Below the pieces are notes generated by a model, which was not told where the DNA came from, searched no databases, and was given only the letters and a program-made list of their open reading frames with translations. 32,000 nucleotides of DNA. Origin: Candidatus Nanopusillus acidilobi (GTDB lineage: Archaea > Nanobdellota > Nanobdellia > Nanobdellales > Nanobdellaceae). Position numbers and translations under genes: made by a program. Each line of letters starts with the position of its first letter. Position 1 is the first letter of the stretch. Where the stretch lies: positions 30,001-62,000 of the forward strand of contig CP010514.1 of assembly GCA_001552015.1 (NCBI GenBank), in the 5' to 3' direction. Shown in pieces: positions 1,211 through 20,882 of this stretch.

Positions 1211-1576
1211 TTAGGATGGGCACACCAACTCATCACCCATGGTTGTGCAAGTTATAGTTGTAGTCGTAGTTATAATCGTAGACGTAAATTCTCCATTCTC
1301 CCCCACTCCATAAGACGTAGTTGTAGTCGTAGTTGTAATTATAGTTGTAGAATATTGGGATGAGCTAGATCCGCCGTTTACTTGATTTGATATATTATTT
1401 ATTGCTTGACCTGTTTGATTTGTTTGATTCAATGTTGGATTTAATACATTTTGTGTTCCAGTTATTCCCTTAGAAAATGTACCTGTAAAGAATAATACTA
1501 CAACTATTAAGGCAACAAGTGCTATTATCAATATAATAATTGTATTAATTGCTATGGATTGGCCTTTCTTTACCAT
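1211..1576 (-). CDS. class III signal peptide (type IV prepilin-like) protein with poly-Thr tracts
   Basis: The N-terminus MVKKGQSIAINTIIILIIALVALIVVVLFF fits the archaeal prepilin pattern K-G-Q-S followed by a hydrophobic helix. The body is N/Q/T-rich with two TIITTTTT tracts and a C-terminal Cys pair (CTTMGDELVC). Confidence 0.7.
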   Translation of the reverse strand: MVKKGQSIAINTIIILIIALVALIVVVLFFTGTFSKGITGTQNVLNPTLNQTNQTGQAINNISNQVNGGSSSSQYSTTIITTTTTTTSYGVGENGEFTSTIITTTTTITCTTMGDELVCPS

Positions 1577-1628
1577 AAATTTTTATACAATTTCTATATT
1601 TTTAAATTTTTTATAAAAGATTAATTTT

Positions 1629-3509: not shown

Positions 3510-3533
3510 AAATATAATATATATTATCAATTT

Positions 3534-3848
3534 ATGTCAATGATAAGGATTAAAATGTGGGGAACTGATTTAAAAACAATGAATCAATTTACTAATCAAT
3601 TGTTAAAAATAATTGAACAATTGGGTATTGAAAAGAGAGGTCCTGTTAATTTACCAACAAAAATAATTAGAATACCTACTATGAGAACATTGGGAAAGAG
3701 AGGTACAAAAATATATGAAACATATCAAATAAGAATATATAGAAGATTTTTAGATGTTGCAAATGATGAAAGATTTTTCAAAAATTACTTTATAAATATG
3801 CAAATTCCATCAAAAGGATTTAGAATATCATTAAAGATAATAAAATGA
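3534..3848 (+). CDS. rps10: 30S ribosomal protein uS10
   Basis: 104 aa with the uS10 pattern GPVNLPTK...RTLGKRGTKIYETYQIRIYRRFLDV. ATGA overlap with the next gene. Confidence 0.9.
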   Translation: MSMIRIKMWGTDLKTMNQFTNQLLKIIEQLGIEKRGPVNLPTKIIRIPTMRTLGKRGTKIYETYQIRIYRRFLDVANDERFFKNYFINMQIPSKGFRISLKIIK

Positions 3849-5499: not shown

Positions 5500-5529
5500 T
5501 TTTTAAAGGTTATTATAAATATATAAAAA

Positions 5530-5805
5530 ATGCTGCATGCTATAAGAGAAATTGATAGAAATGGAAGGGAAATATATAAATGTCCATTATGTGGTCATGT
5601 ATTTGTAAATAGCAAGCAATATAGTAGACATTTAATGAAATCCCATTTAAGAAATGTTACAATGAATAAAAGAAAATGGAAGAAATTTATGAAACAATTA
5701 TTATTAATTGATATAAAGGAAAAAAGTAATATTGAATTAACAAATTATGAAAGATACTTAAAGATAAAATCAAAGTTAAATAATATAAAGCTAAATAGTG
5801 AATAA
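5530..5805 (+). CDS. small classical C2H2 zinc-finger protein with a basic tail
   Basis: 91 aa. YKCPLCGHVFVNSKQYSRHLMKSH gives C-x2-C-x12-H-x4-H. It is followed by the K/R-rich stretch NKRKWKKFMK. Confidence 0.6.
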   Translation: MLHAIREIDRNGREIYKCPLCGHVFVNSKQYSRHLMKSHLRNVTMNKRKWKKFMKQLLLIDIKEKSNIELTNYERYLKIKSKLNNIKLNSE

Positions 5806-6330
5806 TTTTGTCTTTTCTTTTCCAGATAGTTCTCTAATTATTCTTTCATAAATTATATTTTGTATATTTTTAATTCCCTTTACTCTTTCTTCAATATCTT
5901 TAAATGATTCAAATGGTTTCTTCTGTCTTTCTTCAATAATTTTTTGAACAGTTACTTTTCCAATATCTGGTAATAATTCCAATGTATGTATTCTAATATT
6001 TAATGGACCAGCTTTATTAAAAAATTCTACAAATTTTTTCTCATTTTTTGCTATTAGATCTCTTATTGCTTTTTCTAAATTTGCTTTTGCAATTTCAGGT
6101 AATTCATCAAAGGATAATCTTTTTAATATAGATCTTACCTTATCCCTTTGTTTATTTCCAATATATAATTCTTCAAATAAATTTACTGTAACACCAGGTT
6201 TTAATGTTAATAATAATAATGTAAAATAATCCCTTCCAACAGTATATACTACTGGCTCCTTTATATTTTTTGTTGGATCTCCGCCTGGCAAATAATATAT
6301 TACAATTGCATACTCTTCTCTTTTATCCAT
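5791..6330 (-). CDS. DUF655/COG1491-type predicted nucleic-acid-binding protein (OB-like N-terminus plus helix-hairpin-helix)
   Basis: 179 aa. EEYAIVIYYLPGGDP at the N-terminus and LELLPDIGKVTVQKIIEER (HhH) toward the C-terminus. It sits directly downstream of the rpo4-like gene with an 8-nt ATGGATAA overlap, as in the conserved archaeal rpoF-DUF655 pair. Confidence 0.7.
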   Translation of the reverse strand: MDKREEYAIVIYYLPGGDPTKNIKEPVVYTVGRDYFTLLLLTLKPGVTVNLFEELYIGNKQRDKVRSILKRLSFDELPEIAKANLEKAIRDLIAKNEKKFVEFFNKAGPLNIRIHTLELLPDIGKVTVQKIIEERQKKPFESFKDIEERVKGIKNIQNIIYERIIRELSGKEKTKLFTI

Positions 6331-6640
6331 ATTTCTTTATTACATTTAATATTTTTTCAATATCTTGTTTGCTTAAAGTATGCGTATATAATACTGCCCT
6401 TAATTCTTCTTCATTTTTTGGTAAAAATTCTAATATTTGTATTTTTACTTCATCTGGTAAATTTATATCTTTTAATTCTTCTAATATTTCTTTTTCTTCA
6501 TTTTCATCTAATTTATATGTATCATTAAGGAATTTTAATGTTCTTTCTTCTACATATAATAAATTTCTCTTTTCTTTATTTTTTTGTAATATATTTTTAA
6601 CATTTGCAGGTGTTATAAGCTTTTTATTCAGTACTTCCAT
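6323..6640 (-). CDS. rpo4: DNA-directed RNA polymerase subunit Rpo4/F
   Basis: 105-aa acidic helical protein. Its size and its position between the eL21 gene and the DUF655 gene match archaeal Rpo4/F. The call rests mainly on context. Confidence 0.65.
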   Translation of the reverse strand: MEVLNKKLITPANVKNILQKNKEKRNLLYVEERTLKFLNDTYKLDENEEKEILEELKDINLPDEVKIQILEFLPKNEEELRAVLYTHTLSKQDIEKILNVIKKYG

Positions 6641-6692
6641 TTATATATCTTTTTAAATATTATTTAAAAATATATCATGAACTTTTAATTTA

Positions 6693-7016
6693 ATGACTGC
6701 AAGAAAGGGGAAGGGTTCTAGAAGAAAAACAAGGGATAAATTATCATTACATATAAGGGAACATGGTAAAATAAAGATAAGGAAAATATTACAAGAATTC
6801 AATATAAATGATAAAGTTGTAATAAAGATTGATCCATCATATAATAAAACAATGCCTCATCCAAAATATCATGGAATGGTTGGAACAATTATAGGAAAAA
6901 GGGGGGAATGTTATGAAGTTTTAGTAAATGATAAAGGAAAAGAAAAAATGATAATTGTTCATCCAGCACATTTAGAAAAATTTAAGGAACAGGTTTCTCC
7001 TGTTCAATCTTCTTAG
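6693..7016 (+). CDS. rpl21e: 50S ribosomal protein eL21
   Basis: 107 aa. GSRRKTRDKL, PKYHGMVGTIIGKRGECYEVLV and KMIIVHPAHL. Confidence 0.9.
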   Translation: MTARKGKGSRRKTRDKLSLHIREHGKIKIRKILQEFNINDKVVIKIDPSYNKTMPHPKYHGMVGTIIGKRGECYEVLVNDKGKEKMIIVHPAHLEKFKEQVSPVQSS

Positions 7017-7539
7017 TTATATTATTTAAAATAATATCCCTTAATTTTATCATATCATCCTTTTTAATTAATGGTAATTCAATTGTTAAACTTACACTTT
7101 TATTTAATAAAAATGTATGAGTATATATTTTTATTGTATATAATTTTCTAATTTTCTCATATAAACTCTGATATATTTCTATATTATTTATATATGAATT
7201 TTCTATTGATCTTATATTTTCATTTTCAATCAATATTAATCTTTTATTTGTAAATATTATATAATAGTTCTTTGCCTTTTCATAATATTTTAATGCAATA
7301 TAATATACAATTGAAGTAATAAAAAATAATAAAAATAAGGATAATATATTTGGGTTATAATATTCTGAAATTAAGAATGTAACAAAATATATAGAAAAAA
7401 TTAAATATAATGGAAATGTATATCTTAATGAATATATTGATGGATTATAATTAATAGTAAATAATGGATCTTCATTTTCCAATTTTATTTTTTCATTTAT
7501 TTTTTCTTTTTCAAATGATAAATAATAATCTCCTTTCAT
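6982..7539 (-). CDS. membrane protein with a bacterial-type PH (YdbS/YdbT, bPH_2-like) domain
   Basis: 185 aa. Two central TM helices followed by YYIIFTNKRLILIENENI, resembling the bPH_2 signature. Convergent 35-nt overlap with rpl21e. Confidence 0.55.
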   Translation of the reverse strand: MKGDYYLSFEKEKINEKIKLENEDPLFTINYNPSIYSLRYTFPLYLIFSIYFVTFLISEYYNPNILSLFLLFFITSIVYYIALKYYEKAKNYYIIFTNKRLILIENENIRSIENSYINNIEIYQSLYEKIRKLYTIKIYTHTFLLNKSVSLTIELPLIKKDDMIKLRDIILNNITKKIEQEKPVP

Positions 7540-7589: not shown

Positions 7590-8030
7590 ATGGATCTAAA
7601 ATTTGATAAAAGGTTATTATTATTAATAATATTCTCAATAATAGGTTTAATTATATATATTTATTTATCATATGTTGTTTTAATAAATAGCTCATTACCA
7701 TTATTTTGTTCTATTAATAATACCCCAATAAATTGTGAAAATGTAATAAGAAGTCCATATTCAAAATTGTTTGGAATACCTTTAGAAATATATGTAATTT
7801 TATATTTCATAATTGATATATTTTTGATATTATTATTGTATAAGAAAATGTTTAAGATAATTTATAATTTATTATATAGATTAATTGGTATTATATTTGT
7901 AATATTTTCATTATATGTAATGTTATTTTTAATTCATTCAATATGTTTATATTGTTCTACAGTGGATGGAATATTGATTATCAATTTTGGGATAATTTTA
8001 TATTATTATAAAAAGAAAGTTTTCGAATAA
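7590..8030 (+). CDS. VKOR-family (vitamin K epoxide reductase-like) membrane disulfide oxidoreductase
   Basis: I moved the start to ATG 7590, because the track start at 7464 overlaps the minus-strand gene. 146 aa with about 4 TM helices. Loop Cys pair CSINNTPINC, the SPYSKLFGIP motif, and CLYC (CXXC) in the last TM region. Confidence 0.75.
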   Translation: MDLKFDKRLLLLIIFSIIGLIIYIYLSYVVLINSSLPLFCSINNTPINCENVIRSPYSKLFGIPLEIYVILYFIIDIFLILLLYKKMFKIIYNLLYRLIGIIFVIFSLYVMLFLIHSICLYCSTVDGILIINFGIILYYYKKKVFE

Positions 8031-8062: not shown

Positions 8063-8251
8063 ATGAAAAATAGTATAGCAATAGATATGGTAATAATTAT
8101 AGTTATTGCATTAGTTATTTTAGTTTTGGCAGTTTTGTTTGGATATAAAATATTTTTAGGTGGAAATAATACAGCAAATGAGTCAATTAATTTTCTTAAT
8201 AACAGCTTTAATAATATTACAAATCAATCAATTTCAAATATAATAAAATGA
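8063..8251 (+). CDS. 62-aa mini pilin-like protein
   Basis: MKNSIAIDMVIIIVIALVILVLAVLF followed by a tail with the sequons NES, NNS, NIT and NQS. ATGA overlap with the 847-aa gene. Paralogous in architecture to 984-1172. Confidence 0.6.
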   Translation: MKNSIAIDMVIIIVIALVILVLAVLFGYKIFLGGNNTANESINFLNNSFNNITNQSISNIIK

Positions 8252-10791
8252 GGGGGAGTATTTTTGATGATCTTATGCTATTTATAGGATATTATCTTCC
8301 AATATTTATTATAGCTCTTGCAGGAGTTATATTTATTTTAACTTCAATATTTAAATTCTATCATATTAATAATCCATCTCAATATTATATTTCAATAATG
8401 AACCAAAATAGTCAAAACAATCAAAATAGTAATCAGAATACAATAAATTCAACAATTATGGTAAATATATATTATCAGAATGGATTTAATATATATTATG
8501 TTCCATCATTTATTGAAAATCTAAGTAATTGGAGTATATTTTATAATATTACAAATACTTATACTAGTAGTAGTAGTAATTTATCACAAATAAATCCTCC
8601 GAATATAACAAATACTAATTCAACATCATTTGATATAAGTTCATCATATAATGTTGAATTAGAATCTATAATTAATCTATCAAATAATACTTTTGAAGGA
8701 AATAATGTTATATATACGTATAATGAAACTACATATGAATGTAAAATTGTTGGAAATAATGTTTTAGAATATCAGCCAGGTAGTTTTGCATATTTTTGTA
8801 TATTATGTGAACCAGTGTCAGGAAATAGTCCAAGTATACAATATTACTATTTAAGTGAACCTGAATATATAAATATAACTCCAGTAATATCTTTATTAGG
8901 AAATTCTTATCCAAATACTCAATATTATGATTATACAGTAAATAATGTAGAAATAGTTAATGGAACATATTTAGCTATACCTTTATCAAATAGTAATGGA
9001 GGATATTCTATGGAAGATTTCCAAAATATATTAGTTACAATTGGTCCTCCTTTAAGTAATTATATAAATAATACTCCATATGTTGGGGATAATGTAGTAT
9101 TTTTAGTTAATTATGATGGTAAATATTATGCATTACCTTCATGGTATGCTGGTCAAGATAGTGAGGGAAATTATTATTTCTTTATTAATCTATTAAATAT
9201 TCCTTCATTATATAATAGTAATTTTGGTTGTAATATTATATCAATATTTGTTGGATTTAGTAATGAAAGTCTATTACCATATTTAAATGGAACAATTGGT
9301 GGTGATCCTTATGCATTAAATTCATCCAATCCGGCTTCAGCAGTTGAATATGATAATGGATTAAATGTATTTCCAATATATGTTAACTTTTATCCATATA
9401 ATGGAACAAAAGGTGAAAGAATGGAAGAAACATCAGCAGGAGTATGTAATAATGGATATGCATGTTTCGAAAATATTCAATTTAATAATGTATTACCTAC
9501 GTATAATAATATAAGTATTTATGTAAATGGAACAAATATTATTCCACAAATTATAGCAACTGGAGAATTAGAAGGATTAATGATGGATAATGGAACATGG
9601 CAAGGATCATATGCATTAATTACATCAAATGTTTTACAAAAGACTTTTAATCAATTATCTCAATCACAAAATGGATTGGGATTACAAACATTTGCATATT
9701 TTTCTGGAATACCCTGGGAAGATACTCCAGGTACTGTTACAACTCCATATGTTTCAGCTGCTATAGTATTATCATATATTAGTTATAATAATCAATTCCA
9801 AGCTGATACAGTAAATGATTATAATTATAAAGATTCAACAACGAACTGTATACATGGTCTTAGAGGATGTGCTCCTGTAGGAAATCAAAATATAGGAATA
9901 AATGTTGGGGGTGATACATATTTACCACTTAATTTCCCAATATTTATGTATGAATATGCATGGGCATTTGGTGGTCCAGGTCCAGGCTATTCTTCAGGAT
10001 ATTATGTTGGAATATTGCAATATAGTGATACATTAGGATTAGGATATTTCTTAACTACTCAATATACAAATAATCTAAATCCAAGTGGATATTATGATTA
10101 TTATTATTCAGGATCTGGTTGGAGTTGTGGTACAACTTGTTATCTCACTGGTGGTCTAACTGGTTGGAATCTCAATTATTATTTCTTAGAAGATAATAAT
10201 GGAAAGATATACGGACAAAATGGAGGATCAAATTATTTTCCCTTTATGCCACCAGATCAACAAAATAATGATTTTTATTCTCAATATGGTGTATTTTGGC
10301 TGTATAATTGGTTCCAGCCAGAAAATAATAATATGAATATATTCTTCTTAATGAATGGAAACATTTTCAATTATTCTCTTGCTTCAGAACCATATAGTTG
10401 GAATGGGGGAAGTGCGTATGCAATACCACCAAAACCACCTGGAAGAATTTTTTGCTCTGTTGAAGATGATATATGTGAACCTTTATTTGTACAATCATAC
10501 ATAAATGCATATAATACAGCGTTTAATCAATCCTATAATCTTCAAAATGCTTTATATAAATATAGCTATTTTGCTCCTAGTAGTATAAATAATAACACTT
10601 TTATACCTGGAACTTTTGGATATCATGAAGAATATAATATTATTATAAGTCACTTGCAAGATGATTCAAGCGTATATTCAGGAACCCCCTATTTATTTGT
10701 TTCAGCAGGTTCGGGAGGAGGTTCGGGTTTTATGTATCTAAACTGGATAATTGTAACGTATGGAGTTCCTTATGTTATAAGCATATCTTAA
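8248..10791 (+). CDS. large (847 aa) exported, sequon-rich surface protein with an N-terminal hydrophobic anchor/prepilin-like segment
   Basis: MRGSIFDDLMLFIGYYLPIFIIALAGVIFILTSIF, then a Q/N linker. I hand-count 23 N-X-S/T sequons and 12 Cys. This long uninterrupted ORF stands in AT-rich DNA where stop codons are frequent by chance. Confidence 0.75.
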   Translation: MRGSIFDDLMLFIGYYLPIFIIALAGVIFILTSIFKFYHINNPSQYYISIMNQNSQNNQNSNQNTINSTIMVNIYYQNGFNIYYVPSFIENLSNWSIFYNITNTYTSSSSNLSQINPPNITNTNSTSFDISSSYNVELESIINLSNNTFEGNNVIYTYNETTYECKIVGNNVLEYQPGSFAYFCILCEPVSGNSPSIQYYYLSEPEYINITPVISLLGNSYPNTQYYDYTVNNVEIVNGTYLAIPLSNSNGGYSMEDFQNILVTIGPPLSNYINNTPYVGDNVVFLVNYDGKYYALPSWYAGQDSEGNYYFFINLLNIPSLYNSNFGCNIISIFVGFSNESLLPYLNGTIGGDPYALNSSNPASAVEYDNGLNVFPIYVNFYPYNGTKGERMEETSAGVCNNGYACFENIQFNNVLPTYNNISIYVNGTNIIPQIIATGELEGLMMDNGTWQGSYALITSNVLQKTFNQLSQSQNGLGLQTFAYFSGIPWEDTPGTVTTPYVSAAIVLSYISYNNQFQADTVNDYNYKDSTTNCIHGLRGCAPVGNQNIGINVGGDTYLPLNFPIFMYEYAWAFGGPGPGYSSGYYVGILQYSDTLGLGYFLTTQYTNNLNPSGYYDYYYSGSGWSCGTTCYLTGGLTGWNLNYYFLEDNNGKIYGQNGGSNYFPFMPPDQQNNDFYSQYGVFWLYNWFQPENNNMNIFFLMNGNIFNYSLASEPYSWNGGSAYAIPPKPPGRIFCSVEDDICEPLFVQSYINAYNTAFNQSYNLQNALYKYSYFAPSSINNNTFIPGTFGYHEEYNIIISHLQDDSSVYSGTPYLFVSAGSGGGSGFMYLNWIIVTYGVPYVISIS

Positions 10792-10806
10792 AAATATTGC
10801 TAAAAA

Positions 10807-11748
10807 TTAACTGGGTAGATTATATGTTTGATTTGGAACATAAAAATTGTTGAAAGATGAACCAGCAATATTTCCAATTGCTCCGTATGGAATTATTGTT
10901 TTGTTAGGTAGTGCTAGTACATATCCTCCAGCGATATCTATACTGCTATATTGTTGATATAAGTGTGTTTCATAAACCAATGTTCCTGTTACATTTGCCC
11001 AATCATATACTGGTGAGTTTCCTGGTATTACTGCTGCGTATGTTCCTGGTGTATTCATTGCCGCTACGAAGTTGGGTACCCATTTATCATATGTATAGAA
11101 TCCTGCAATGTTCGCTGGGTTTATTTTATTTGCCTCTATTATATAATATGTCTGTCCATTTATTATTGCCTGCTCAACTGGCACCTTACCCTTAATTACA
11201 TATAAATCCTTTAAGGGGTCATATGGTTGATGATTTATTGGATCAGTCTGTCCAACAAATTGATTATTTAGTTGAACTATTTGATTATGATTATTAATTA
11301 TTGTACTTGCATACTGTCCATTCCATATTACGTCATGTAATGTTGTTCCATTGTTTAATATTAAATCACCTACAGGATCTGTTTGTCCATTATAATTTAT
11401 TGTTTGACCGTTTGGTACAAATGCTTCATAACCATTTTGAGATCCTAAATATTGTATATGTTCATTATGTGAAGGTAATGCATGTATTCCAAATAATGCA
11501 AATCCTATAGCAGCAGCAGTAGCAATAACACCAATTGCTATTGATGCATATTTTGCAGCTATACCTCTACGACCACCAAGTCTTCCTTCTAAATATGATC
11601 CTACTGAAAGTGAAGCTCTTGTATAAGGAGATAATGATAATGCATAACCTGCTATTACTGGCCCATATTCTTTTAAATATTCTTTAATTTTTCCAATACT
11701 TTTTATATTTCTCATTAAAATAGTATCTAAAGTCACACGCTCTTGCAT
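10807..11748 (-). CDS. single-pass membrane protein (about 65 aa cytoplasmic N-terminus, Ala-rich TM, extracellular domain), function unknown
   Basis: 313 aa. The TM helix is IAIGVIATAAAIGFALFGI, and a GQTDP motif is repeated in the ectodomain. It is noticeably more GC-rich than its neighbours. It shares an N-terminal module with 13194-14402. Confidence 0.7.
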   Translation of the reverse strand: MQERVTLDTILMRNIKSIGKIKEYLKEYGPVIAGYALSLSPYTRASLSVGSYLEGRLGGRRGIAAKYASIAIGVIATAAAIGFALFGIHALPSHNEHIQYLGSQNGYEAFVPNGQTINYNGQTDPVGDLILNNGTTLHDVIWNGQYASTIINNHNQIVQLNNQFVGQTDPINHQPYDPLKDLYVIKGKVPVEQAIINGQTYYIIEANKINPANIAGFYTYDKWVPNFVAAMNTPGTYAAVIPGNSPVYDWANVTGTLVYETHLYQQYSSIDIAGGYVLALPNKTIIPYGAIGNIAGSSFNNFYVPNQTYNLPS

Positions 11749-11860
11749 ATAATATACTTTTAATAAAGTTTTAAAAAGATAATTATACTTATAATTATCA
11801 AATAAATAAACCTTTTTATAAAAATTTTATAAATATTTTTAATTTCCTAATCTAAAAAAG

Positions 11861-13102
11861 CTAATATAAAATAATAAACACTACAACACCAACTATTATT
11901 AAAATAATAACCCAAATTGGTATTGAACTAAACAAAGATTTATTAGATGTTGTAGTTATACTTGGTATTGAACTATATGAAGATGTATTAGAAGTTGATG
12001 AAGTTGATGTGGTAGGAATATTATTTATATTATTGGTAGTAGTTGTAGTAGATTGACTTATTTGATAAGGTAATGGTGTTATTGCCATATATATTGAACC
12101 TTGTCCATTTGAAATATTATTTAATCCAAACCATGCTAAATAAAGATTATTATTTGAAATTGTTGCTCTTGGAATTATTGTAAATTGAGTTGTATAATTA
12201 ACAATTGATTGTAATTCTGTACCATTCCAATAATATACACTTAATAAACCAGGTCTCCATGCAATTATAACATATCCATTATTCCATGATATTGGAAATG
12301 CACTTTCATATATTGGTAAATTAAATGTCAAATTTTGATTAATTGTTAATACTCCATTATAAAATTGATATAATGAATTACCAACAAAGCCAATATCCGT
12401 TGCACTTACAAATTCAATATTTCCATTATTCATGTTTACTAAAGCATAAGTACCATTTAGAAATTGAACAGCTACAAGACCATTATTTGCACTTAAAATA
12501 CCAGCAATACCTGGAATATTTAAGGATTTAATAACATTACCTGAAAGTGTTAATTCTTCAAGTATTGTATTATTATATGTAAGGGATAATGTAGGTTCAT
12601 AAACTAAATATATATAATTTCCATCACTAGCATAACTCATTGCATCACCGCTTGTTGTTAAATTAATAACAGGTCCCCAAACATTATTATTTAATATTGA
12701 AGCTTGAAGAAGAATTGTTAAATTATTTAAACTATAACTTCCAATTGGCACACCAGCCCATAGCATCATTAATGATCCATTATTTAATTCAACTAATGCT
12801 GGACTAGCTTCTCCCAAATCATTAAAATTTGGTAAAGGTGCATTCATTTCTTCAGTTCCATTAAATACTAAACCATTAATAGTTGCAATTGATGATTTCA
12901 ATTCTGTATAATAAATATAAACAAGACCATTATAACTAGTTATTGAAAACCCATAACCAAATCTAGAATTATTAGTTATTATAATAATTGATGTATTTGT
13001 ATATTGTTGGCCATTTAAATTTGTTTGTGCTATAATTTTTGTACCTAACATTATCAAAGATAATATAAAAATAATAGCTATTGCCTTAAATTTATTTTTC
13101 AT
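11861..13102 (-). CDS. cell-surface protein: Sec-type signal peptide, beta-rich repeat body, Ser/Thr stalk, C-terminal TM anchor
   Basis: 413 aa. N-terminus MKNKFKAIAIIFILSLIMLGTKIIAQ. Recurrent strand-like blocks (YIYYTE, LMMLWAG, YIYLVYEP, LVAVQFLNGTYALV, YVIIAWRPGLLSVYYW, LYLAWFG). A TTTTTNNINNIPTTSTSSTSNTSSYSS stalk, then IWVIILIIVGVVVFIILY at the C-terminus. Confidence 0.75.
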   Translation of the reverse strand: MKNKFKAIAIIFILSLIMLGTKIIAQTNLNGQQYTNTSIIIITNNSRFGYGFSITSYNGLVYIYYTELKSSIATINGLVFNGTEEMNAPLPNFNDLGEASPALVELNNGSLMMLWAGVPIGSYSLNNLTILLQASILNNNVWGPVINLTTSGDAMSYASDGNYIYLVYEPTLSLTYNNTILEELTLSGNVIKSLNIPGIAGILSANNGLVAVQFLNGTYALVNMNNGNIEFVSATDIGFVGNSLYQFYNGVLTINQNLTFNLPIYESAFPISWNNGYVIIAWRPGLLSVYYWNGTELQSIVNYTTQFTIIPRATISNNNLYLAWFGLNNISNGQGSIYMAITPLPYQISQSTTTTTNNINNIPTTSTSSTSNTSSYSSIPSITTTSNKSLFSSIPIWVIILIIVGVVVFIILY

Positions 13103-13193
13103 ATAATTTTCTATTATTATTTATTTTTAAGTATTATGGTTATTGAAAATTTGCTATAAAAAATTAATAAAATCCAAAATTTTTATAAATGAT

Positions 13194-14402
13194 ATGAAAT
13201 CAATAAGCGATAGTGTAATAGAACTTATTATTGTAATTATTATAATAATATTTGTAATATTAGTTTTCTTTAATGTATTAAAAGGTCTTAGTTATGCAGG
13301 TAGACCAGAAGCAAAGTTTGGATATGCATTATCAGGAAGTATAAGTTTTATGGTAAATCCAATAGCACAGGGAATATCCGATGCTTCAACAATTGCAAAT
13401 GATGTATTAATAGGAATTATTGCTGCTACGGCTGTTGCTGGTATAGTTAAAGGAGTTTATGAAAATTATAATGCGAATATAGAATATTTAGAGAGTATAG
13501 GATTTAGTGAAGAAGATATACAGAATATGGATTTGAAAGATCTGTTATTTGAGGATCTTCAGAATGGAGGATCTGCATTAGGTCCTATTGCGAAAGATGT
13601 TATAAATTCATATAGAACAGTATTTTTAAATCCTTTAGGTGGTGGTTTATTATTTGGAACTATTGGTTTAGATTTATCATCTGAATCTTTAAATAATTTA
13701 GCTCATGCATTACAAGGACCAATTTTATATTATTTAGTTCCAGAAGGTTTAGTAGTTGTGAATTTGAGTAATATAGGTGGTTCCCAGATAAATGAAATGC
13801 TTAATGATTTAAATCAATCATATGTAAATAATATAGAACAACAGCAATATTGTAGTAATCCAACATCATCAGCATGTCAAAATTTATATGCAACATATTT
13901 AGTTGCAAAATATTTATTCTATACATATGGAGAAACACTGGGACAAAGTGTAACTATAGCAGGAAATCATAATGAATATGTATTATTATTATTTGACTAT
14001 AATAGTACATATAATGTTACATTAAATGATGTTTTATGTATGCTGGAAATGATGAAATATTATAATTATATTCCATTGGAAGTTATGTATGGAGATAAGG
14101 TAATAGCAAATAGTACTAATAATATCGCCTGTCAGATTTTAAGCAATGTAAATAGTAGTTTAATGTCAGAAAATCCACAAGATTCAAATAATGTATATAA
14201 TAAACTATTAGTAAACTCTTTTGAAGTAAATAACAGCAGTGGTAAACCTTATCTATTAAGTTCAACTAAAAACAACCCTTCACCAAATCAAGTTACAATT
14301 ATTCCAGGTAATCTAACATTACCAAATGGTATAATAATAGAATATACATATGAGGGAGGAAATAGGGTAATTCTATTAACATCAATTTCTGGGGGAAGTT
14401 AG
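13194..14402 (+). CDS. exported/membrane protein with a prepilin-like N-terminus and a GYALS/Ala-rich-helix module, function unknown
   Basis: I set the start at ATG 13194 (MKSISDSVIELIIVIIIIIFVILVFF) rather than the track's TTG at 13143. 402 aa with 4 Cys. The first gene of a tightly packed nine-gene plus-strand array. Confidence 0.7.
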   Translation: MKSISDSVIELIIVIIIIIFVILVFFNVLKGLSYAGRPEAKFGYALSGSISFMVNPIAQGISDASTIANDVLIGIIAATAVAGIVKGVYENYNANIEYLESIGFSEEDIQNMDLKDLLFEDLQNGGSALGPIAKDVINSYRTVFLNPLGGGLLFGTIGLDLSSESLNNLAHALQGPILYYLVPEGLVVVNLSNIGGSQINEMLNDLNQSYVNNIEQQQYCSNPTSSACQNLYATYLVAKYLFYTYGETLGQSVTIAGNHNEYVLLLFDYNSTYNVTLNDVLCMLEMMKYYNYIPLEVMYGDKVIANSTNNIACQILSNVNSSLMSENPQDSNNVYNKLLVNSFEVNNSSGKPYLLSSTKNNPSPNQVTIIPGNLTLPNGIIIEYTYEGGNRVILLTSISGGS

Positions 14403-14432
14403 TTTATAAATTACAAAGTTTTTAGATTTATA

Positions 14433-14579
14433 ATGGAAACTGGAGAACTTTTAAAGATAATCCTAGCATTAATATTTATTGTACTAATATTAATATTTGT
14501 TTTTGTCATATTGGGACCAAAAATAGGGCTAAATATAAATATATTTGCAAACTATCAATTAATAGGAGGAAATGGATAA
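14433..14579 (+). CDS. 48-aa mini pilin-like protein (not in ORF track)
   Basis: Hand translation: METGELLKIILALIFIVLILIFVFVILGPKIGLNINIFANYQLIGGNG*. Its stop overlaps the next start (ATGGATAA). Confidence 0.5.
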   Translation: METGELLKIILALIFIVLILIFVFVILGPKIGLNINIFANYQLIGGNG

Positions 14580-14754
14580 AAGAACTCAATTAGATACATT
14601 TTTAATAGCAATAATATTATTTATAGTTGCTTTAGTATTGTTAGTAATATTTATGTACTTTTATTTCAAAGGTGGAGTAAATTTATTTAATAGTATAAAT
14701 CAAACAAATGGCACAAATGTTGTAAATAGCATAAATAGTAATAACTATGGCTGA
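14572..14754 (+). CDS. 60-aa mini pilin-like protein
   Basis: MDKRTQLDTFLIAIILFIVALVLLVIFMYFYF followed by a tail with the sequons NQT and NGT. It overlaps both neighbours by 8 nt. Confidence 0.6.
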   Translation: MDKRTQLDTFLIAIILFIVALVLLVIFMYFYFKGGVNLFNSINQTNGTNVVNSINSNNYG

Positions 14755-14905
14755 TAATGCAATAAATTTTTTAATATTTTTAATTATTGCACTAGTAATA
14801 ATAATTTTAGCAATATTATTTTATTATTATATAGTAAATAATTCTATGCAGGTAAATGTAACAAGTGTTGGGTATAAAGTATTAAATCAATCTGGATTAG
14901 GATAA
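14747..14905 (+). CDS. 52-aa mini pilin-like protein (not in ORF track)
   Basis: Hand translation: MADNAINFLIFLIIALVIIILAILFYYYIVNNSMQVNVTSVGYKVLNQSGLG*. The start lies inside the previous gene (ATGGCTGA), and the stop is 1 nt before the next ATG. Confidence 0.5.
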   Translation: MADNAINFLIFLIIALVIIILAILFYYYIVNNSMQVNVTSVGYKVLNQSGLG

Positions 14906-14906
14906 T

Positions 14907-15839
14907 ATGAAAGGGGATTCTCTTATTAAAATAATTTTTGATATAATAGTATTAATTGTATTGGTAGTTTTAATATATTATATTATTACGGCACTTATTG
15001 GATTATCTATGGGGAAAGATTTTGAATATATCGGATATTTAAATTCAATTGCTGATGCTATAAATAATAATGCTACTGGACAGATATTTATAGATAATTA
15101 TGATTATAATTATGTTTTTGTATTGACATATAACAATGGATGGTATTTACAATTATATCATTGTTTTCCTCCGAACGTTGTTGTAGGTCTTTTATCTGTT
15201 AAATTAGTATATTGGAATGTTTCTACAACAGATAATGGAAATACTATCATATTTGCACCAGCATTAGCATTTTGTAAATTAATAAAACAAAGATCATTAG
15301 ATAATGTAAATGAAATAAATATAAACATACAAGGATTAAATGATAATGCTGGTTTATTAGCATATTCTGAGAATAGTAATTTAAATGTTTTTGACCTTTT
15401 TATAAATGTAATAATAAATACTGTTAGTAATCTTCAAATACCATCATCAATGGTTCTTACTATAATAAATGATACAAATATAACATGTAATAGTAATAGA
15501 TGTACGTTTATGTCAACAATTAATGAAAATAGTAATACATATGAAGAAAGTGGTAATATATATTGTTCTCCATATTCAAATATGAATTCAAATAGTTTAA
15601 CATATAATCCATCGGTATGTGTTGAATTATCAGGATTTCCACAAAATTCTCAAGTACAGCTTAGTAATTTAGAAGGTGAAATAGTAGATGCTGCTACATT
15701 AGGAAGTCTCTTTCAAGGGGTAGATTTTCCAATATTATTATTAGCAGGTTCTTTACCACCAACAGTAATGTATATAGATGTAAATAGTAATGATGGAACG
15801 GCAGATATTAATATATATATAGGAGAAACTGTTTCATAG
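14907..15839 (+). CDS. 310-aa exported protein with a class III-like N-terminus
   Basis: MKGDSLIKIIFDIIVLIVLVVLIYYII fits K-G-D-S-L-I followed by a helix. 6 Cys. N-rich body, no recognised domain. Confidence 0.7.
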   Translation: MKGDSLIKIIFDIIVLIVLVVLIYYIITALIGLSMGKDFEYIGYLNSIADAINNNATGQIFIDNYDYNYVFVLTYNNGWYLQLYHCFPPNVVVGLLSVKLVYWNVSTTDNGNTIIFAPALAFCKLIKQRSLDNVNEININIQGLNDNAGLLAYSENSNLNVFDLFINVIINTVSNLQIPSSMVLTIINDTNITCNSNRCTFMSTINENSNTYEESGNIYCSPYSNMNSNSLTYNPSVCVELSGFPQNSQVQLSNLEGEIVDAATLGSLFQGVDFPILLLAGSLPPTVMYIDVNSNDGTADINIYIGETVS

Positions 15840-15840
15840 T

Positions 15841-16956
15841 ATGGATGATGAATTATTAGATGCAATAATAGCATCAATATTTTTAATAATTGTATCGTTA
15901 ATAGGAATATATTTTCCATATATTGTTACAAGAATATTTGGTACTCATAATCCTTATTTAATATTAGAAGTTGCTGGTTTTATTACATATTCAACATCAG
16001 AACCTGGAAATATGAGTGCAGCATTTTTAGTAACTAATGGACCAACCTTTTTCTATGAATTTAGGATAATTCCTCCAATACAATCATCCGCTCTGTTTAT
16101 TCCTTTATATAATAATAATGATTTTTTAGTTAGTATTGGAGTATGCTATGTACGTGATTTATGGCAACAACTTGCAGATGATGCACTAAATTCTTTTATA
16201 GCTGAAGGACTTTCATATTTACCAGGATTAAAGAGTTTTGGTTCAACAAAATCTATAATAGAAGTTTTAAATGGCATATCTAAAAACATACCAGCAATTG
16301 CTAAACAAGCATTAATAAATTTTGGCATTGCATATACTTCATATACAGAACAATCTGCATATTTGCAATATTCATATGGAAATCATAATATATGGGGAGA
16401 TATTTTTAATGCATTGCAATCTTCAGTAGGGCCTTCTTTATGGGCTGCTGGAGAAGCTACTATAATGCAAGTTGTAGATATGGTATTAGATGAAACTTTA
16501 CCACCTCCAGCCGATTTTGTAGCTGGTTTTGCATTTAATATGGCATTTTCCTCAGCAATCACTTTAATACAATATTGGCAAGCTACAACAAATCCATATA
16601 CATATTGTTATTATAATCAATTTATAAGTCAAGGTAAAACTTTTTTTGGTCTACTTCCAAATGGTAAATATACAGTATATCAACCATATTTAACATTATC
16701 AATATATTATAATCCAAATTTCACATTTTATAATGGATGTTATGGTAATGATAATGATTATTATTTATGTAATACAAGCTTTACATATATCTATAATTCA
16801 ACTGAAGAATCAGAAGATAATATATTTAAATTAGATTTAGGAAATATAAATAATGAGGGTCAAGAAGAATTTCCAGAGTTTATTGTTATATCAAAGGTTG
16901 GTGTAGAATATGGAGGCCCATATCTAAATATATCAGTATTATCTTCTGAAACATGA
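15841..16956 (+). CDS. 371-aa exported/membrane protein, function unknown
   Basis: MDDELLDAIIASIFLIIVSLIGIYFPYIV at the N-terminus. The central part is less AT-biased (A/G/L-rich). 4 Cys. There is a 1-nt spacer from the upstream gene and an ATGA overlap downstream. Confidence 0.7.
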   Translation: MDDELLDAIIASIFLIIVSLIGIYFPYIVTRIFGTHNPYLILEVAGFITYSTSEPGNMSAAFLVTNGPTFFYEFRIIPPIQSSALFIPLYNNNDFLVSIGVCYVRDLWQQLADDALNSFIAEGLSYLPGLKSFGSTKSIIEVLNGISKNIPAIAKQALINFGIAYTSYTEQSAYLQYSYGNHNIWGDIFNALQSSVGPSLWAAGEATIMQVVDMVLDETLPPPADFVAGFAFNMAFSSAITLIQYWQATTNPYTYCYYNQFISQGKTFFGLLPNGKYTVYQPYLTLSIYYNPNFTFYNGCYGNDNDYYLCNTSFTYIYNSTEESEDNIFKLDLGNINNEGQEEFPEFIVISKVGVEYGGPYLNISVLSSET

Positions 16957-17789
16957 GATCATTATCCTTAAAAGATATAATTGAATATATAGCTGCTGCA
17001 GTTGTTATAATATTTACATTTTTTATTGTAGCAATATTATATGCGTTTTTTAATATTGAATCATATTCAGAATATACTTATCAGCAATTTACTAATAGTT
17101 TATTGATTGATAGATTAAATTATTGTTTATATGAAAATACAGGAAATCCATTATTATTATTTTATGCTCCAAATTTGCAGATTATTAATGAATATAATAA
17201 TACATATCAACAATGTTTCATGAATGTATCTGGAACACTTTATTATTATATTAATCAAACAAATCAATCAGATCAAGTTAACTATACATATCTAAATTTT
17301 TCTTATGATGATTATATATATTTCTTTTTCTATGATATTAACAATATAAATAACTCATATTCTTATGATCCATATAACCTTAGTTTTGAAAATGATATAA
17401 ATGTAAATCCAAATTATGTTGCATATAATATTAATAATGTTAGTTATACATATGATGGAAGTTTAGCATCTTTAGATCAGTTTTTAATCAATTATTTCTA
17501 TAATTATAGTTTATATATATTTAATGAAACAGAAAATGCATATGAAAACTATCAAATTATAAATAATACTGCAATATATTATGCTTATGCAGATGGGGAT
17601 TATTATAATGAAATATATATACAACCAATAGCTTCATATTATATTACTTTACCAGAATATGATAGTGGAGAACCTGTAATAGTATCTTTATATGGAGTAG
17701 GAAATCTTTATATGAATGGAATATATAATGAAACATGTAATACGATTGCCGGAGGCCAAATAAATATATCTTCTTGTCAAATTAATTAA
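16953..17789 (+). CDS. 278-aa exported N/Y-rich protein, function unknown
   Basis: MRSLSLKDIIEYIAAAVVIIFTFFIVAILYAFF at the N-terminus. 4 Cys and many sequons. Confidence 0.7.
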   Translation: MRSLSLKDIIEYIAAAVVIIFTFFIVAILYAFFNIESYSEYTYQQFTNSLLIDRLNYCLYENTGNPLLLFYAPNLQIINEYNNTYQQCFMNVSGTLYYYINQTNQSDQVNYTYLNFSYDDYIYFFFYDINNINNSYSYDPYNLSFENDINVNPNYVAYNINNVSYTYDGSLASLDQFLINYFYNYSLYIFNETENAYENYQIINNTAIYYAYADGDYYNEIYIQPIASYYITLPEYDSGEPVIVSLYGVGNLYMNGIYNETCNTIAGGQINISSCQIN

Positions 17790-17795
17790 AGTACA

Positions 17796-18293
17796 ATGAA
17801 AATACAAATTGGTTTCTTTTTATCATTTATGGTTGCAATATTAATTATTATAGTAGTATTCTTTATATTTATTTTTGGTATATTTTCATATGGAAATCCA
17901 ACACTAAATAATATTGCAGATTTAAATACTGTTGGTATTGAATATAAATCTGCAAATGGTTTTTTAGATTCTTTAATTTACTTTGATAATGTAACTGTTC
18001 CTGTAATAGATATATATGCAGGGTTTTATAATGATACAGAATTGGATAATTATATAATAAATGAATTGGTAAATGATGAATTATATTATTTAAATAATTC
18101 AGCTACAATTTTATCGTTCTATTTAAATAATTATACAGTTATTGGAGTATGCCCAAATAAAGAATATATACCTTATAATGTTTATTTAGATGGTAACTTT
18201 TATACATTCTATGTTTGTCCGCCAACAGTATTATATAATTTTTATGTAAATTACAGTTATAATATATATAGTTCATCTAATCAATTAACTTAA
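17796..18293 (+). CDS. 165-aa exported protein, function unknown
   Basis: MKIQIGFFLSFMVAILIIIVVFFIFIFGIF at the N-terminus. 2 Cys (GVCPNK, YVCPPT). Confidence 0.65.
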   Translation: MKIQIGFFLSFMVAILIIIVVFFIFIFGIFSYGNPTLNNIADLNTVGIEYKSANGFLDSLIYFDNVTVPVIDIYAGFYNDTELDNYIINELVNDELYYLNNSATILSFYLNNYTVIGVCPNKEYIPYNVYLDGNFYTFYVCPPTVLYNFYVNYSYNIYSSSNQLT

Positions 18294-18324
18294 AGTTAAT
18301 AATTTTAAAATTCATTGATTTTAT

Positions 18325-19830
18325 ATGAAAACATCTTTAGCACCATTAGCATTATTAATAGGAGTAATAATTTTAGTTCTCTTTGGTATATATTATTTAA
18401 ATTCTCAGATGGAACTTTCAACTCAATCTTTAAAATATTTAAGTGAAGATTATATTGCATATCAGGGATTTTTATATTTATTATTTGTTTATATTCCATT
18501 TGATATTAGATATAATTTAATAAATAATCTTTTAACAAATATTTTTTACCCTGTTTATAATCAGGGTTATGTATTTGAAAATAGTATTCCATATTATTAT
18601 TATTACTCTTGTGAAATTCCTTTTTTATTTAAATACAATATAAGTAACTCTATAATTTATCCTGTTTATTCTATTGGAAATAATTATTATATAAATTATT
18701 CATTATGTGTTCCAATAATTCCTTTAGATAATTTAAGTGATATAAATAATAATATTTTTTATAGTGTTGCAAATACTGTAGAGAAAAATTTAAACGAAGA
18801 AATTGGAATTTTAAATTTTAAATATGCAAATTTTTCATATCAGGATTTTTATTATGACAGTTCTATTAATAGTTTTGTATTATCAAATCCTCAATATTCT
18901 TTCTTTGTATTAAGCAAATATGAAAGAAATTTATCTTTTCCTCAATTAAATAATCGAATAGATTATTCAGTATACCCATTTTTATTATATTATAATGAAT
19001 TAATTGATTATTTATATAATCAAACATTTCAATTCATATATTATAATTTAACAAATCAATCAGATTATATATATTTATATCAAAATTCGTATTCTAATGA
19101 AACAGTTGGTGATAATTTATACTTAGATTTGTCGTTTAATAATCCCTATTATTATGTTCTGGATTTGTATACATCTCAACCTATACCATCAGAATATCCA
19201 GGCATTACAAATGTAACAATTGTAATACCATGTGAATCTGTTGGACAGATCGTAAATAATCAATGTATTATAAATGATACATATAGTGAATATATGAATG
19301 AATGCTTATATTCAAATATAAATAATATATTGTTAAATTATCAATCATATAATATAAATAAAGAGAATATATTCAATGAATATTGGTATAACATAACTAG
19401 TGTAAATATTAGTAATGAAGAAAATGTAGAAGTTAATAGAAGTTTTGTTGAAAATATATTAGAAAATTATACATATTATACTGACGGATATTATCCAGCT
19501 TTAATACCTGTAGATCTTCAAATAAATTATAGTAATGTTAGTTGTTCTATATATAATGAAACATTACAATTTGGACCATATAAATATTATTCTAATTGTT
19601 CATCAGCACAAGACTATTTATCGAATTTATGTATAATTGAACACACATGCTATGCAGTGAAAGCACACGGATATTCAGGAGTTTATTTTTTTAATGCTAT
19701 ATGTCCTGTTCCAGAAACAAGTATAAATAATCAATTTACATACAATTACTATTTATATGAATTTGTAGAAATAAATAATGAAACAATAAATGATTATTGC
19801 GATAATTTATATTGTTATATAATAGGATAA
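18325..19830 (+). CDS. 501-aa exported Cys-rich N/Y-rich protein, function unknown
   Basis: MKTSLAPLALLIGVIILVLFGIYY at the N-terminus. 12 Cys, clustered in the C-terminal half. The last gene of the array. Confidence 0.7.
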   Translation: MKTSLAPLALLIGVIILVLFGIYYLNSQMELSTQSLKYLSEDYIAYQGFLYLLFVYIPFDIRYNLINNLLTNIFYPVYNQGYVFENSIPYYYYYSCEIPFLFKYNISNSIIYPVYSIGNNYYINYSLCVPIIPLDNLSDINNNIFYSVANTVEKNLNEEIGILNFKYANFSYQDFYYDSSINSFVLSNPQYSFFVLSKYERNLSFPQLNNRIDYSVYPFLLYYNELIDYLYNQTFQFIYYNLTNQSDYIYLYQNSYSNETVGDNLYLDLSFNNPYYYVLDLYTSQPIPSEYPGITNVTIVIPCESVGQIVNNQCIINDTYSEYMNECLYSNINNILLNYQSYNINKENIFNEYWYNITSVNISNEENVEVNRSFVENILENYTYYTDGYYPALIPVDLQINYSNVSCSIYNETLQFGPYKYYSNCSSAQDYLSNLCIIEHTCYAVKAHGYSGVYFFNAICPVPETSINNQFTYNYYLYEFVEINNETINDYCDNLYCYIIG

Positions 19831-20408: not shown

Positions 20409-20882
20409 ATGGATAAAGAAAAGATAATATTAAATATATTATTCCTAGCATTTTCTATACCAGTAATTTATCTAATATATTATTCATATTCAACATATTT
20501 TAGTGGAAATAAGATGGTAAATCCTGAAAATATATATAATTTATACATATCAAACTTTACTGTAAGTGGAGATTATTTTTCTTTTAATGTAAATAATCCA
20601 AACAATTATTCTGTTGAAATATATTTTTCATATTTAGGATTAAGAAATTCATATCAAACATCATCAATAATTACTTCTGGAAATTTTTTACAAAATATAT
20701 ATATAATACAACCAGGTAATCATATTACATTACAATATAATTTTGAATTGGATGAACAAACAAGATTGACAATTATTCAATGGGAAAAACTTGGTGGAAT
20801 TTTATATTTAACATTATATTATTCATCTGTAGGAAATAATTCTGTTAATGGAATAATAAATTATCAAATAGAAAAAAGCTAG
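20409..20882 (+). CDS. 157-aa N-terminally anchored membrane protein, function unknown
   Basis: MDKEKIILNILFLAFSIPVIYLIYY, then a beta-rich ectodomain. Its TAG stop shares the palindrome CTAG with the convergent dnaG stop. Confidence 0.55.
   Translation: MDKEKIILNILFLAFSIPVIYLIYYSYSTYFSGNKMVNPENIYNLYISNFTVSGDYFSFNVNNPNNYSVEIYFSYLGLRNSYQTSSIITSGNFLQNIYIIQPGNHITLQYNFELDEQTRLTIIQWEKLGGILYLTLYYSSVGNNSVNGIINYQIEKS

Follow-up and report, generated by a model that had tools for sequence, protein, structure and literature searches.

What do thirteen consecutive genes for exported proteins build on the surface of a host-dependent archaeon? The question is raised by positions 8063-19830 of a 32,000-nucleotide stretch of Candidatus Nanopusillus acidilobi DNA (contig CP010514.1; hereafter "the window", G+C ~24%), where genes g1 to g13 encode products of 48 to 847 residues, all of them exported or membrane-anchored. 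A first-pass annotation made from the letters of the window had described this block as an island of mostly prepilin-like proteins and a candidate surface filament. The coordinates, sizes and couplings that it gave for the open reading frames (ORFs) all proved correct on re-check. Its supposition of a host-dependent archaeon also holds, the source being a Nanopusillus-like ectosymbiotic nanoarchaeon of acidic hot springs. The g10 product (15841..16956, plus strand) is 93% identical to a protein from a Candidatus Nanopusillus acidilobi metagenome-assembled genome (MAG) and 75% identical to Nst1_044 of Nanobsidianus stetteri.

On the sequence evidence, the cluster is best read as encoding one multi-subunit, N-glycosylated, disulfide-bonded cell-surface apparatus. 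A narrower reading, given a probability a little short of even, is that it encodes the minor pilins, mini-pilins and adhesin of a type-IV-filament-like structure, whose assembly in trans would serve contact with the host. All its protein families are new and the cluster itself is undescribed; its organising principle is known. No mention of MJ1_0040, MJ1_0046-MJ1_0048, MJ1_0050 or Nst1_044 was found in the literature.

Conservation and composition of the locus

The locus is a vertically inherited set of operons (g1-g2, g3, g4 and g5-g13, with the satellites g14, VKOR and g0a), specific to thermophilic Nanoarchaeota. Across at least eight deep nanoarchaeal lineages, the genes and their order persist within one and the same housekeeping context, and it is this conservation that makes the cluster more than a chance grouping. 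Strict synteny is found in Nanobdella aerobiophila (g10 is MJ1_0047, g2 is MJ1_0040), in the cultured YN1 (g2 is YN1_3820), in seven Nanopusillus/Nanobsidianus genomes and in two further Nanopusillaceae MAG lineages. It extends to Nanoclepta and two more distant uncultured lineages, with TYW3-g14-DnaG-FBPase-AlaRS as constant neighbours. A test of synteny in related genomes had been a first-pass suggestion, and conserved order is observed. The description as an island fails on the same comparison, which reveals in every lineage a vertically inherited core locus at a fixed position among housekeeping genes. In the window, these flanks comprise ArgRS, S10, Nop56, fibrillarin, L21e, TYW3, DnaG, class V FBPase and AlaRS. 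Within the genus, the housekeeping proteins on either side share 92-98% identity and the large cluster proteins 60-84%; in comparison with YN1 and Nanobdella, the values are 69-85% and 28-46%, respectively. Gene order in the cluster is frozen, and its ectodomains change far more rapidly than the genes on its flanks.

This fixed position bears directly on the idea of an integrated virus, plasmid or other mobile island. Such an origin would fit the slightly raised G+C content at 9-12 kb (0.29-0.31, against ~0.16-0.25 in the flanks), the many small transmembrane (TM) proteins, as in archaeal viruses, and the movement of the g2-g3 segment between genomes. However, the same position between housekeeping genes is occupied in every lineage, and the cluster harbors no integrase, replication or capsid genes. 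It has no significant PHROGs match, a scan of IMG/VR returned no relative of g2, and BFVD holds no fold match. Furthermore, the rise in G+C fits the Lys-poor composition of exported proteins. Synteny effectively refutes a provirus or mobile island, for which a negligible probability remains.

The export signature is equally uniform. Eleven of the thirteen products (g1, g2 and g5-g13) carry, as first annotated, a pilin-like N-terminus with a head of 2-10 residues followed by a hydrophobic helix. This is a single strong hydrophobic segment within the first ~35 residues (Kyte-Doolittle 19-mer mean 2.7-3.9). By hydropathy, g3 has an internal TM segment at residues 70-88, and g4 a Sec-like signal plus a C-terminal TM segment. 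N-X-S/T sequons reach 2.83 per 100 residues in the 13 cluster proteins versus 0.34 in 12 housekeeping proteins of the same window, an 8-fold excess. In the same comparison, Lys is 6-fold rarer (1.9% versus 12.1%) and Cys 4-fold more frequent (1.15% versus 0.29%). This composition is an extracellular signature.

Family searches were negative. Scans of g1-g13 and selected orthologues against Pfam, NCBIfam and PHROGs (E <= 0.001) gave no significant match, and neither did PDB sequence profile searches with g10 and g2. An exhaustive HMMER search with the g10 profile against 1.84 billion representative proteins returned 20 clusters, of which all named ones are nanoarchaeal, Nanoclepta minutus included; the same search yielded no g10 homologue in N. 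equitans. Hydropathy, composition and these null searches agree with the first-pass view of extracytoplasmic, sequon-rich proteins of unrecognised family. A weak tachylectin/beta-propeller hint in g2 (E = 0.028) was not upheld by its AlphaFold model. All-versus-all hhalign comparison of the ectodomain alignments revealed no hidden paralogy (probability <=1.5%). The ectodomains thus compared are unrelated to one another, and the proteins share their N-terminal module only, as in minor-pilin sets.

Mutually unrelated ectodomains would also be expected of a loose assortment of glycoproteins of the envelope or pseudoperiplasm (in S-layer accessory, nutrient-capture or protease-like roles), kept together for co-regulation, glycosylation or disulfide formation. 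Other exported proteins do lie nearby (VKOR and a thermopsin-domain protein at 29127-31412), and surface glycoproteins are plentiful in nanoarchaeal genomes (bioRxiv 10.1101/2023.10.27.564410). Against such a set stands the coupling of the genes, which overlap by 4 nt (8248, 16953) or 8 nt (14572, 14747) or are spaced by a single nucleotide (14906, 15840); this indicates stoichiometric co-translation. Order and content are kept although the proteins have diverged to ~30% identity, and four mini proteins of 44-62 residues are almost devoid of an ectodomain, which is sensible only for parts of a complex. Finally, searches of Pfam, NCBIfam, PHROGs and PDB sequences gave no significant match of the bodies to families of S-layer, solute-binding or protease proteins; homology of that kind would have told against the first-pass proposal. 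A loose set is considered improbable.

N-terminal boundaries and proposed assembly

How could a single apparatus be assembled from these proteins? In the type-IV-filament-like reading, most subunits would carry a class-III-type signal, M-[KR]-[G/A/S/T/N], followed by a helix of ~22 residues. They would insert into the membrane with the N-terminus in the cytoplasm and be trimmed by the cell's prepilin/preflagellin peptidase. An ATPase/TadC pair encoded elsewhere would then assemble them via their N-terminal helices into a pseudopilus or a tip/minor-pilin complex. The four mini proteins (g1, g6, g7 and g8; about 48-62 residues) would provide the helical core, and six unrelated large ectodomains (g2 and g9-g13) the exposed, fast-evolving surface. 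The g2 protein and its partner g3 would form the host-binding module, through which the apparatus would contact the crenarchaeal host. The sequences themselves show the export and anchor features, the composition, the synteny, the fast ectodomain evolution, the boundary statistics and the host copies of g2-g3; signal cleavage, filament formation, assembly by a type IV machine and a role in attachment are inferred.

A basic residue followed by G, A, S, T or N stands directly ahead of the helix in 49 of 55 family-by-lineage cases, against a background of 25-37%. Each case is one observation per family and deep lineage, and assignment by eye replaced an automatic -1 rule that was confounded by internal Lys/Arg in the helices. 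The canonical G or A follows the basic residue in 19 of the 55 (e.g. KKG/V, HKG/Q, RKRG/S, KRA/V and MMRG/I; the slash marks the predicted boundary), and KG, KA or RG is present in at least one lineage for nearly every family. Across lineages, the junction reads R-G, K-S or K-T in g2; K-S, KKG, KRA or RKA in g5; R/K-T, KRS or HKG/Q in g7; K/R-G, K-S, K-N, R-T or KRA in g9; R-S, R-A, K-G, MMRG or KKG in g11; and K-T, RKRG, R-S, K-S or R-A in g13. A small gene of one distant lineage has a classical 19-residue leader, ending in HEKKA/ISLP. In g11, an Asp is invariant at the predicted mature position +5 in all lineages (LSLKD, ISISD), and g1 and g2 possess one at the predicted +5 in several lineages. 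Furthermore, the first 32 residues are more conserved than the bodies in g2, g9, g10, g11 and g13.

Class-III-like N-termini, as first annotated, are weakly supported by the window alone and considerably more strongly once orthologues are included, through the basic and small residues ahead of the helix. The first-pass annotation had recognised MKGDSLI (14907) and the satellite MVKKGQSIA as the sole fits to [KR]-G-x-[SLI]; g2 (MRG/SIF) fits as well. The strict FlaFind-type regular expression is matched almost only by g10 (D-A/IIAS).

AlphaFold2 models are available for two members. The g10 model, from a 10-sequence alignment (pLDDT 65, pTM 0.64), begins with a helix at residues 3-33 and a second helix, followed by a beta sheet broken by a ~145-residue helical bundle and by more beta strands. 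The g2 model, from 32 sequences (pLDDT 55, pTM 0.64), has a helix at residues 4-40, then an N/Q-rich stretch (pLDDT <50) lacking assigned secondary structure, and finally an all-beta multidomain body. Foldseek comparison of both models with the PDB, and of g2 with BFVD, returned nothing meaningful (TM <= 0.17). Of the pilin architecture anticipated at first, a long N-terminal helix and a beta-rich body are found in the models, and a known pilin fold is not. The modelled helix-plus-head shape is compatible with a pilin-like architecture. A more specific assignment of g10 as a GspK-like "pilin fold with alpha-insertion" was dropped for want of Foldseek support.

Several observations weigh against the type-IV-filament-like reading. 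The 49 of 55 sites were assigned by eye, and the orthologues behind them are only partly independent. The strict FlaFind-type expression is rarely satisfied, essentially by g10 only. Position -1 is frequently occupied by S, T or N, and by Ile in Nanopusillus g12, whereas characterised archaeal prepilin peptidases are known mainly for G or A there. The heads of g6 and g10 are acidic and lack any basic residue, and g3 and g4 plainly lack a pilin-like character. Any signal anchor with a cytoplasmic N-terminus (N-in), moreover, also shows a basic residue ahead of a TM helix. Models of pilins, archaellins or class III proteins gave no match up to an E of 1 in Pfam and 10 in NCBIfam, in scans covering the window proteins and the orthologues with canonical KKG/HKG sites. 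Confidence in the structure models is low to moderate, and neither matches a solved pilin. Lastly, no gene for an ATPase, TadC/FlaJ or peptidase lies beside the cluster in any of the 8 deep lineages, so that nothing ties the cluster to a type IV machine by association.

Much of this would be accommodated by an unprocessed membrane-anchored complex, in which uncleaved N-in anchors remain, with their helices packed in the membrane, and form a lattice or collar on the outside of the cytoplasmic membrane (for instance the stacked cone or the portal of the nanoarchaeal attachment organelle) independently of any type IV machine. Single-TM proteins that form virus-associated pyramids in Sulfolobus offer an analogy. 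Assembly genes unlinked in every lineage, the lack of a pilin profile or fold match, -1 residues beyond G/A and the acidic heads of g6 and g10 all favor such a complex. In addition, g3, being bitopic, and g5, with its second hydrophobic segment, resemble membrane components. However, it leaves unexplained the preference for a small residue after the basic one, with its interchange of G, A, S and T, as well as the canonical KG/Q-type sites and the 19-residue KKA/ leader. Prepilin-type handling is favored by the Asp that g11 keeps at +5 in every lineage and by an ancestral placement next to canonical pilin genes. The anchored complex is the main rival reading and a real possibility, if one well below an even chance.

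Assembly in trans, as the type-IV-filament-like reading proposes, presupposes machinery elsewhere. ATPase, platform and peptidase are absent from the window, as first reported, and from all related loci. A complete lack of type IV machinery in the genome would have told against the first-pass proposal, but relatives are reported to carry ATPases and FlaJ/TadC proteins (PMC4858521, PMC6142677). In Nst1, five VirB11-type ATPases have been listed, three of clade 2, one of the archaellum and one of clade 4 (Makarova, Koonin & Albers 2016, PMC4858521 Table S3), and the cognate pilins of one nanoarchaeal ATPase clade are described there as unidentified. Four FlaJ/TadC homologues, and two type IV pilus systems in addition to the archaellum, have also been described (Jarett et al. 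2018, PMC6142677). N. acidilobi expresses archaellum proteins (PMC4935971), and therefore a prepilin-type peptidase is implied. Machinery exists elsewhere in these genomes, and the pilin set that it lacks could naturally be this cluster.

Copies of g2 and g3 in host-lineage genomes

Is any part of the cluster in genetic contact with the host? Genomes of host lineages contain inserted copies of the region for the last ~500 residues of g2 and of g3, its convergent neighbour. The closed 2.76-Mb chromosome of Sulfurisphaera ohwakuensis YN1HA (AP031374.1), the host of YN1, harbors such a copy (locus L016, 10016-12343), with 93% nucleotide identity to YN1 over 552 bp and a G+C content of 0.26-0.31 versus 0.33-0.42 in the flanks. 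A contig of Stygiolobus sp. (L017, 5641-9153; G+C 0.22-0.33 versus 0.36-0.45) holds nearly the whole g2, with one frameshift, plus g3. In a Thermoprotei MAG of ~60% G+C (L018, 841-3095; 0.28-0.34 versus 0.50-0.63), the C-terminal part of g2 is found with g3. All three inserts are low-G+C islands. Copies of the g2 domain are also present at a second Stygiolobus locus (L020, 6001-7131) and in an Acidianus MAG (L019, 6001-6993). The flanks of L017, L019 and L020 include genes for an aldehyde/xanthine dehydrogenase (MoCo-binding), glutamate synthase and acyl-CoA dehydrogenase, which we take to be typical of Sulfolobales rather than of nanoarchaea.

In an identity matrix that took in four host copies, their nearest nanoarchaeal relatives were YN1 (73%), a Nanopusillaceae MAG (66%) and the Nanopusillus clade (72-74%). 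The host copies are thus closest to three different nanoarchaeal lineages, and therefore at least three independent transfers from symbiont to host have occurred. The host copies keep long ORFs despite their AT-rich sequence, and the N-terminal anchor is absent from two of the three best studied. No g1, g4 or g5 sequence accompanies the host inserts, and searches with g10 gave no matches named for a host lineage. The evidence for capture comes from searches with g2 and g10 only, with possible ascertainment bias, and the copies in MAGs could reflect chimeric assemblies. No report of g2-g3 in the host chromosome was found in the YN1 paper. These caveats notwithstanding, the copies single out g2-g3 as the module that appears most entangled with the host.

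Two further observations belong here. In the YN1HA chromosome, the g2-g3 insert has a thermopsin gene at a distance of ~2.4 kb (L016, 5351-7567). A 459-residue protein (P0139) on the 607.5-kb contig of 'Candidatus Nanopusillus massiliensis' possesses the g2 C-terminal domain at 35% identity, and this domain therefore extends past hot-spring lineages.

Members of the cluster, related systems and a possible role in host contact

The limits 8063-19830 set at first hold for the thirteen genes and fall short for the unit, as VKOR lies upstream, g14 downstream, and the pilin gene at 1211-1576 marks an ancestral border. This last gene, g0a (1211..1576, minus strand), codes for a Thr-rich protein of 121 residues, MVKKG/QSIAINT..., and is a stand-alone canonical class-III pilin-like gene. 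Its hydrophobic helix resembles that of g1 (SIAIN... versus SIAID...). In Nanoclepta and at loci L021 and L022, the layout runs ArgRS, two to three small pilin-like genes, g5, g6, g7-g8, g9-g13, TYW3, g14, DnaG, FBPase and AlaRS. This layout is probably ancestral, in which case g0a beside ArgRS would be the old border of the cluster, and g2-g3 (with g4 in Nanopusillus) would be later additions. Within positions 1211-7539, an S10-Nop56-fibrillarin-...-L21e-PH-domain block now separates the ArgRS/pilin border from the rest of the cluster, which suggests a rearrangement in the Nanopusillus/Nanobdella/YN1 lineage.

The VKOR-family membrane oxidoreductase (7590..8030, plus strand; Pfam PF07884, E = 1.1e-19) ends 32 nt upstream of g1. 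The ORF as called begins at 7464, overlapping the neighbouring PH-domain gene, and the Met at 7590 is the probable true start. Homologues occupy the same position in Nanobsidianus, L010 and YN1, and not in Nanobdella. The enzyme probably makes disulfide bonds in the Cys-containing exported proteins. At the opposite end lies g14 (20409..20882, plus strand; 157 residues, N-terminally anchored), with just TYW3, encoded on the other strand, between it and g13. It has no family assignment, is the best conserved member (57-62% to YN1 and Nanobdella) and is syntenic (TYW3-g14-DnaG) in all lineages examined.

The first operon joins g1 (8063..8251, plus strand) and g2 (8248..10791, plus strand) through an ATGA overlap. 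The 62-residue mini protein g1 (MKN/SIAID...) consists of the helix and a 35-residue tail with 5 sequons, and is a paralogue of g8. With 847 residues (MRG/SIFDD...), g2 is the candidate adhesin, and it is its C-terminal ~500-residue domain that recurs in host genomes. Convergent to g2, g3 (10807..11748, minus strand) encodes a bitopic protein of 313 residues, with ~69 residues ahead of the TM segment at 70-88 and an ectodomain after it; it evolves very rapidly and moved to hosts together with g2. The 413-residue surface glycoprotein g4 (11861..13102, minus strand) displays a Sec-type signal, an S/T-rich stalk and a C-terminal TM anchor, and is restricted to Nanopusillus/Nanobsidianus.

The main operon starts with g5 (13194..14402, plus strand; 402 residues, MKS/ISDSV), whose start is most likely the ATG at 13194 rather than the upstream TTG at 13143, a correction to the earlier reading. 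Its helix is followed by a conserved motif, SY[AS]GR..KF.YA.S, and by a second hydrophobic segment at residues 67-85. This segment (~57-96 in Nanobdella) gave an NCBIfam match to a "pilin-like conjugal transfer protein" of a mycoplasma integrative and conjugative element (E = 0.095), which is probably compositional. The mini proteins follow on the same strand: g6 (14433..14579; 48 residues), with an acidic head, METGELL..., lacking a basic residue ahead of the helix and 62-93% identity across lineages; g7 (14572..14754; 60 residues, MDKRT/QLD), with 8-nt overlaps at both ends, a conserved FYFKGG tail and HKG/QIS in Nanobdella; and g8 (14747..14905; 52 residues, MADNAINFLIF...), the g1 paralogue. 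In Nanoclepta, L021 and L022, g7 and g8 are fused in frame into one ORF of 109-118 residues (L015 8849-9178; L021 8953-9297; L022 8927-9283). Just ahead of the second helix, the fusion has a basic stretch ending in RG/D, RS/S or RA/D, which could represent a prepilin-type site within the ORF, an internal start other than ATG or part of a two-TM protein. The topology of a two-TM protein would be at odds with the sequons in both tails.

The larger subunits complete the plus-strand operon. The 310-residue g9 (14907..15839; MKG/DSLIK...) has an invariant acidic residue in its helix (IIFDII or FIFELI), and its first 32 residues are 43-53% identical, compared with 24-29% for the rest. In g10 (371 residues, acidic head MDDELLDA/IIAS...), the first 56 residues are nearly invariant at 35% overall identity, and 4 Cys are invariant. 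The boundary of g11 (16953..17789; 278 residues, MRS/LSLKDIIEY...) is [KR][SAG] in 13 of 14 orthologues. The pilin-sized g12 (17796..18293; 165 residues, MKI/QIGFFLS...) keeps the QIGFFLS motif, with Q as first residue, in 11 of 14. Last comes the Tyr/Cys-rich g13 (18325..19830; 501 residues, 20 sequons), with MKT/SLAP... in the window and RKRG/SLAP in YN1. Farther downstream, positions 29127-31412 (plus strand) encode a surface protein of 761 residues that combines a thermopsin domain (Pfam E = 2.8e-53) with a Sec signal and a C-terminal TM anchor, and contains 36 sequons and 19% Asn.

Which known systems does this resemble? Archaeal type IV pilus loci, such as Methanococcus Epd, also group co-transcribed proteins that have nothing but an N-terminal class-III-like helix in common, span sizes from very small up to >800 residues, have conserved cysteines and are heavily glycosylated on their exposed parts, and their pilin sets may sit apart from the ATPase/TadC pairs that serve them in trans (PMC4858521). 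In contrast, the present cluster has no pilin match of arCOG type, in Pfam or in NCBIfam, its leaders are only 2-5 residues long, -1 is often S, T or N, two heads are acidic and no machinery is linked. Neither is an Ig-like pilin fold recognisable in its bodies at the confidence obtained.

The bacterial fimU-pilVWXY1E and type II secretion system GspG-K sets contain pilin-like subunits only, together with a very large tip protein, and their assembly genes lie elsewhere. The all-pilin-like operon with a large protein and the acidic residue near +5 (g11, g1, g2) are shared features. However, no homology links them to the cluster, its proteins depart from the bacterial G(-1)/F(+1)/E(+5) pattern, the archaeal envelope has no outer membrane, and 11 members bear the helix instead of 4-5. 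The Sulfolobus bindosome (Bas) combines the small pilin-like BasABC with large sugar-binding proteins bearing class III signals, and forms no long pilus. It resembles the cluster in pairing small pilin-like with large surface proteins, and it is found in the lineage that hosts these nanoarchaea. It differs in that no solute-binding domains were detected in the cluster (Pfam, NCBIfam) and no BasE/BasF-like genes are adjacent. A functional analogy is offered by episymbiotic Saccharibacteria, ultrasmall and obligate, which use type IV pilus systems for host binding (PMC11623550); theirs is a bacterial system, with recognisable pilins and machinery.

A further comparison is with the Nanobdellota attachment organelle. 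Cryo-electron tomography of Nanobdella aerobiophila, YN1 and YN4 has revealed that the nanoarchaeal membrane bears a stacked-repeat cone, with a portal and a 7-8 nm tube or filament that extends into the host, and all three papers state that its proteins are unknown (PMC11104419, PMC11420986, 2026 preprint). Of the imaged species, the two with examined genomes, Nanobdella aerobiophila and YN1, both carry the cluster in syntenic form, a link by co-occurrence only. Its many membrane-proximal subunits, prone to repetitive assembly, and a possible filament would suit such an organelle. No mention of the cluster was found in the survey of Nanobdella surface proteins, which proposes thermopsin-, lectin- and pectin-lyase-like proteins as other candidates (bioRxiv 10.1101/2023.10.27.564410). 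Thermopsin-like proteins of Nanobdella have been proposed by others to degrade the host S-layer. The boldest proposal, considered less likely than not, is that the cluster is the structural core of the organelle. Mini-proteins and pilin-like subunits would then form the portal and the 7-8 nm filament or tube, orphan ATPase/TadC pairs would drive assembly, and g2-g3 would recognise the host, which would have domesticated fragments of them as decoys or for interference. Captured viral envelope genes are the comparison for such domesticated fragments.

To the question of how ultrasmall DPANN/Nanobdellota attach to and feed on their hosts, the cluster, itself a strong candidate for the attachment machinery, brings a short and conserved list of candidates. 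In Nanobdella these are MJ1_0040 (g2), MJ1_0047 (g10) and the genes that lie between or next to the two; in YN1, YN1_3820 (g2) and those that follow it downstream; and in Nst1, Nst1_036 (g2), Nst1_044 (g10) and their cluster neighbours. The candidate species are cultivated, and the list is therefore directly testable. If the type-IV-filament-like reading is true, the cluster would supply the "missing pilins" of the orphan nanoarchaeal type IV ATPases noted in 2016 (PMC4858521). Sulfolobales and Thermoprotei genomes have captured g2-g3 repeatedly, which documents DNA flow from symbiont to host directly at the genome level and marks one protein pair as the likely focus of the conflict between them.

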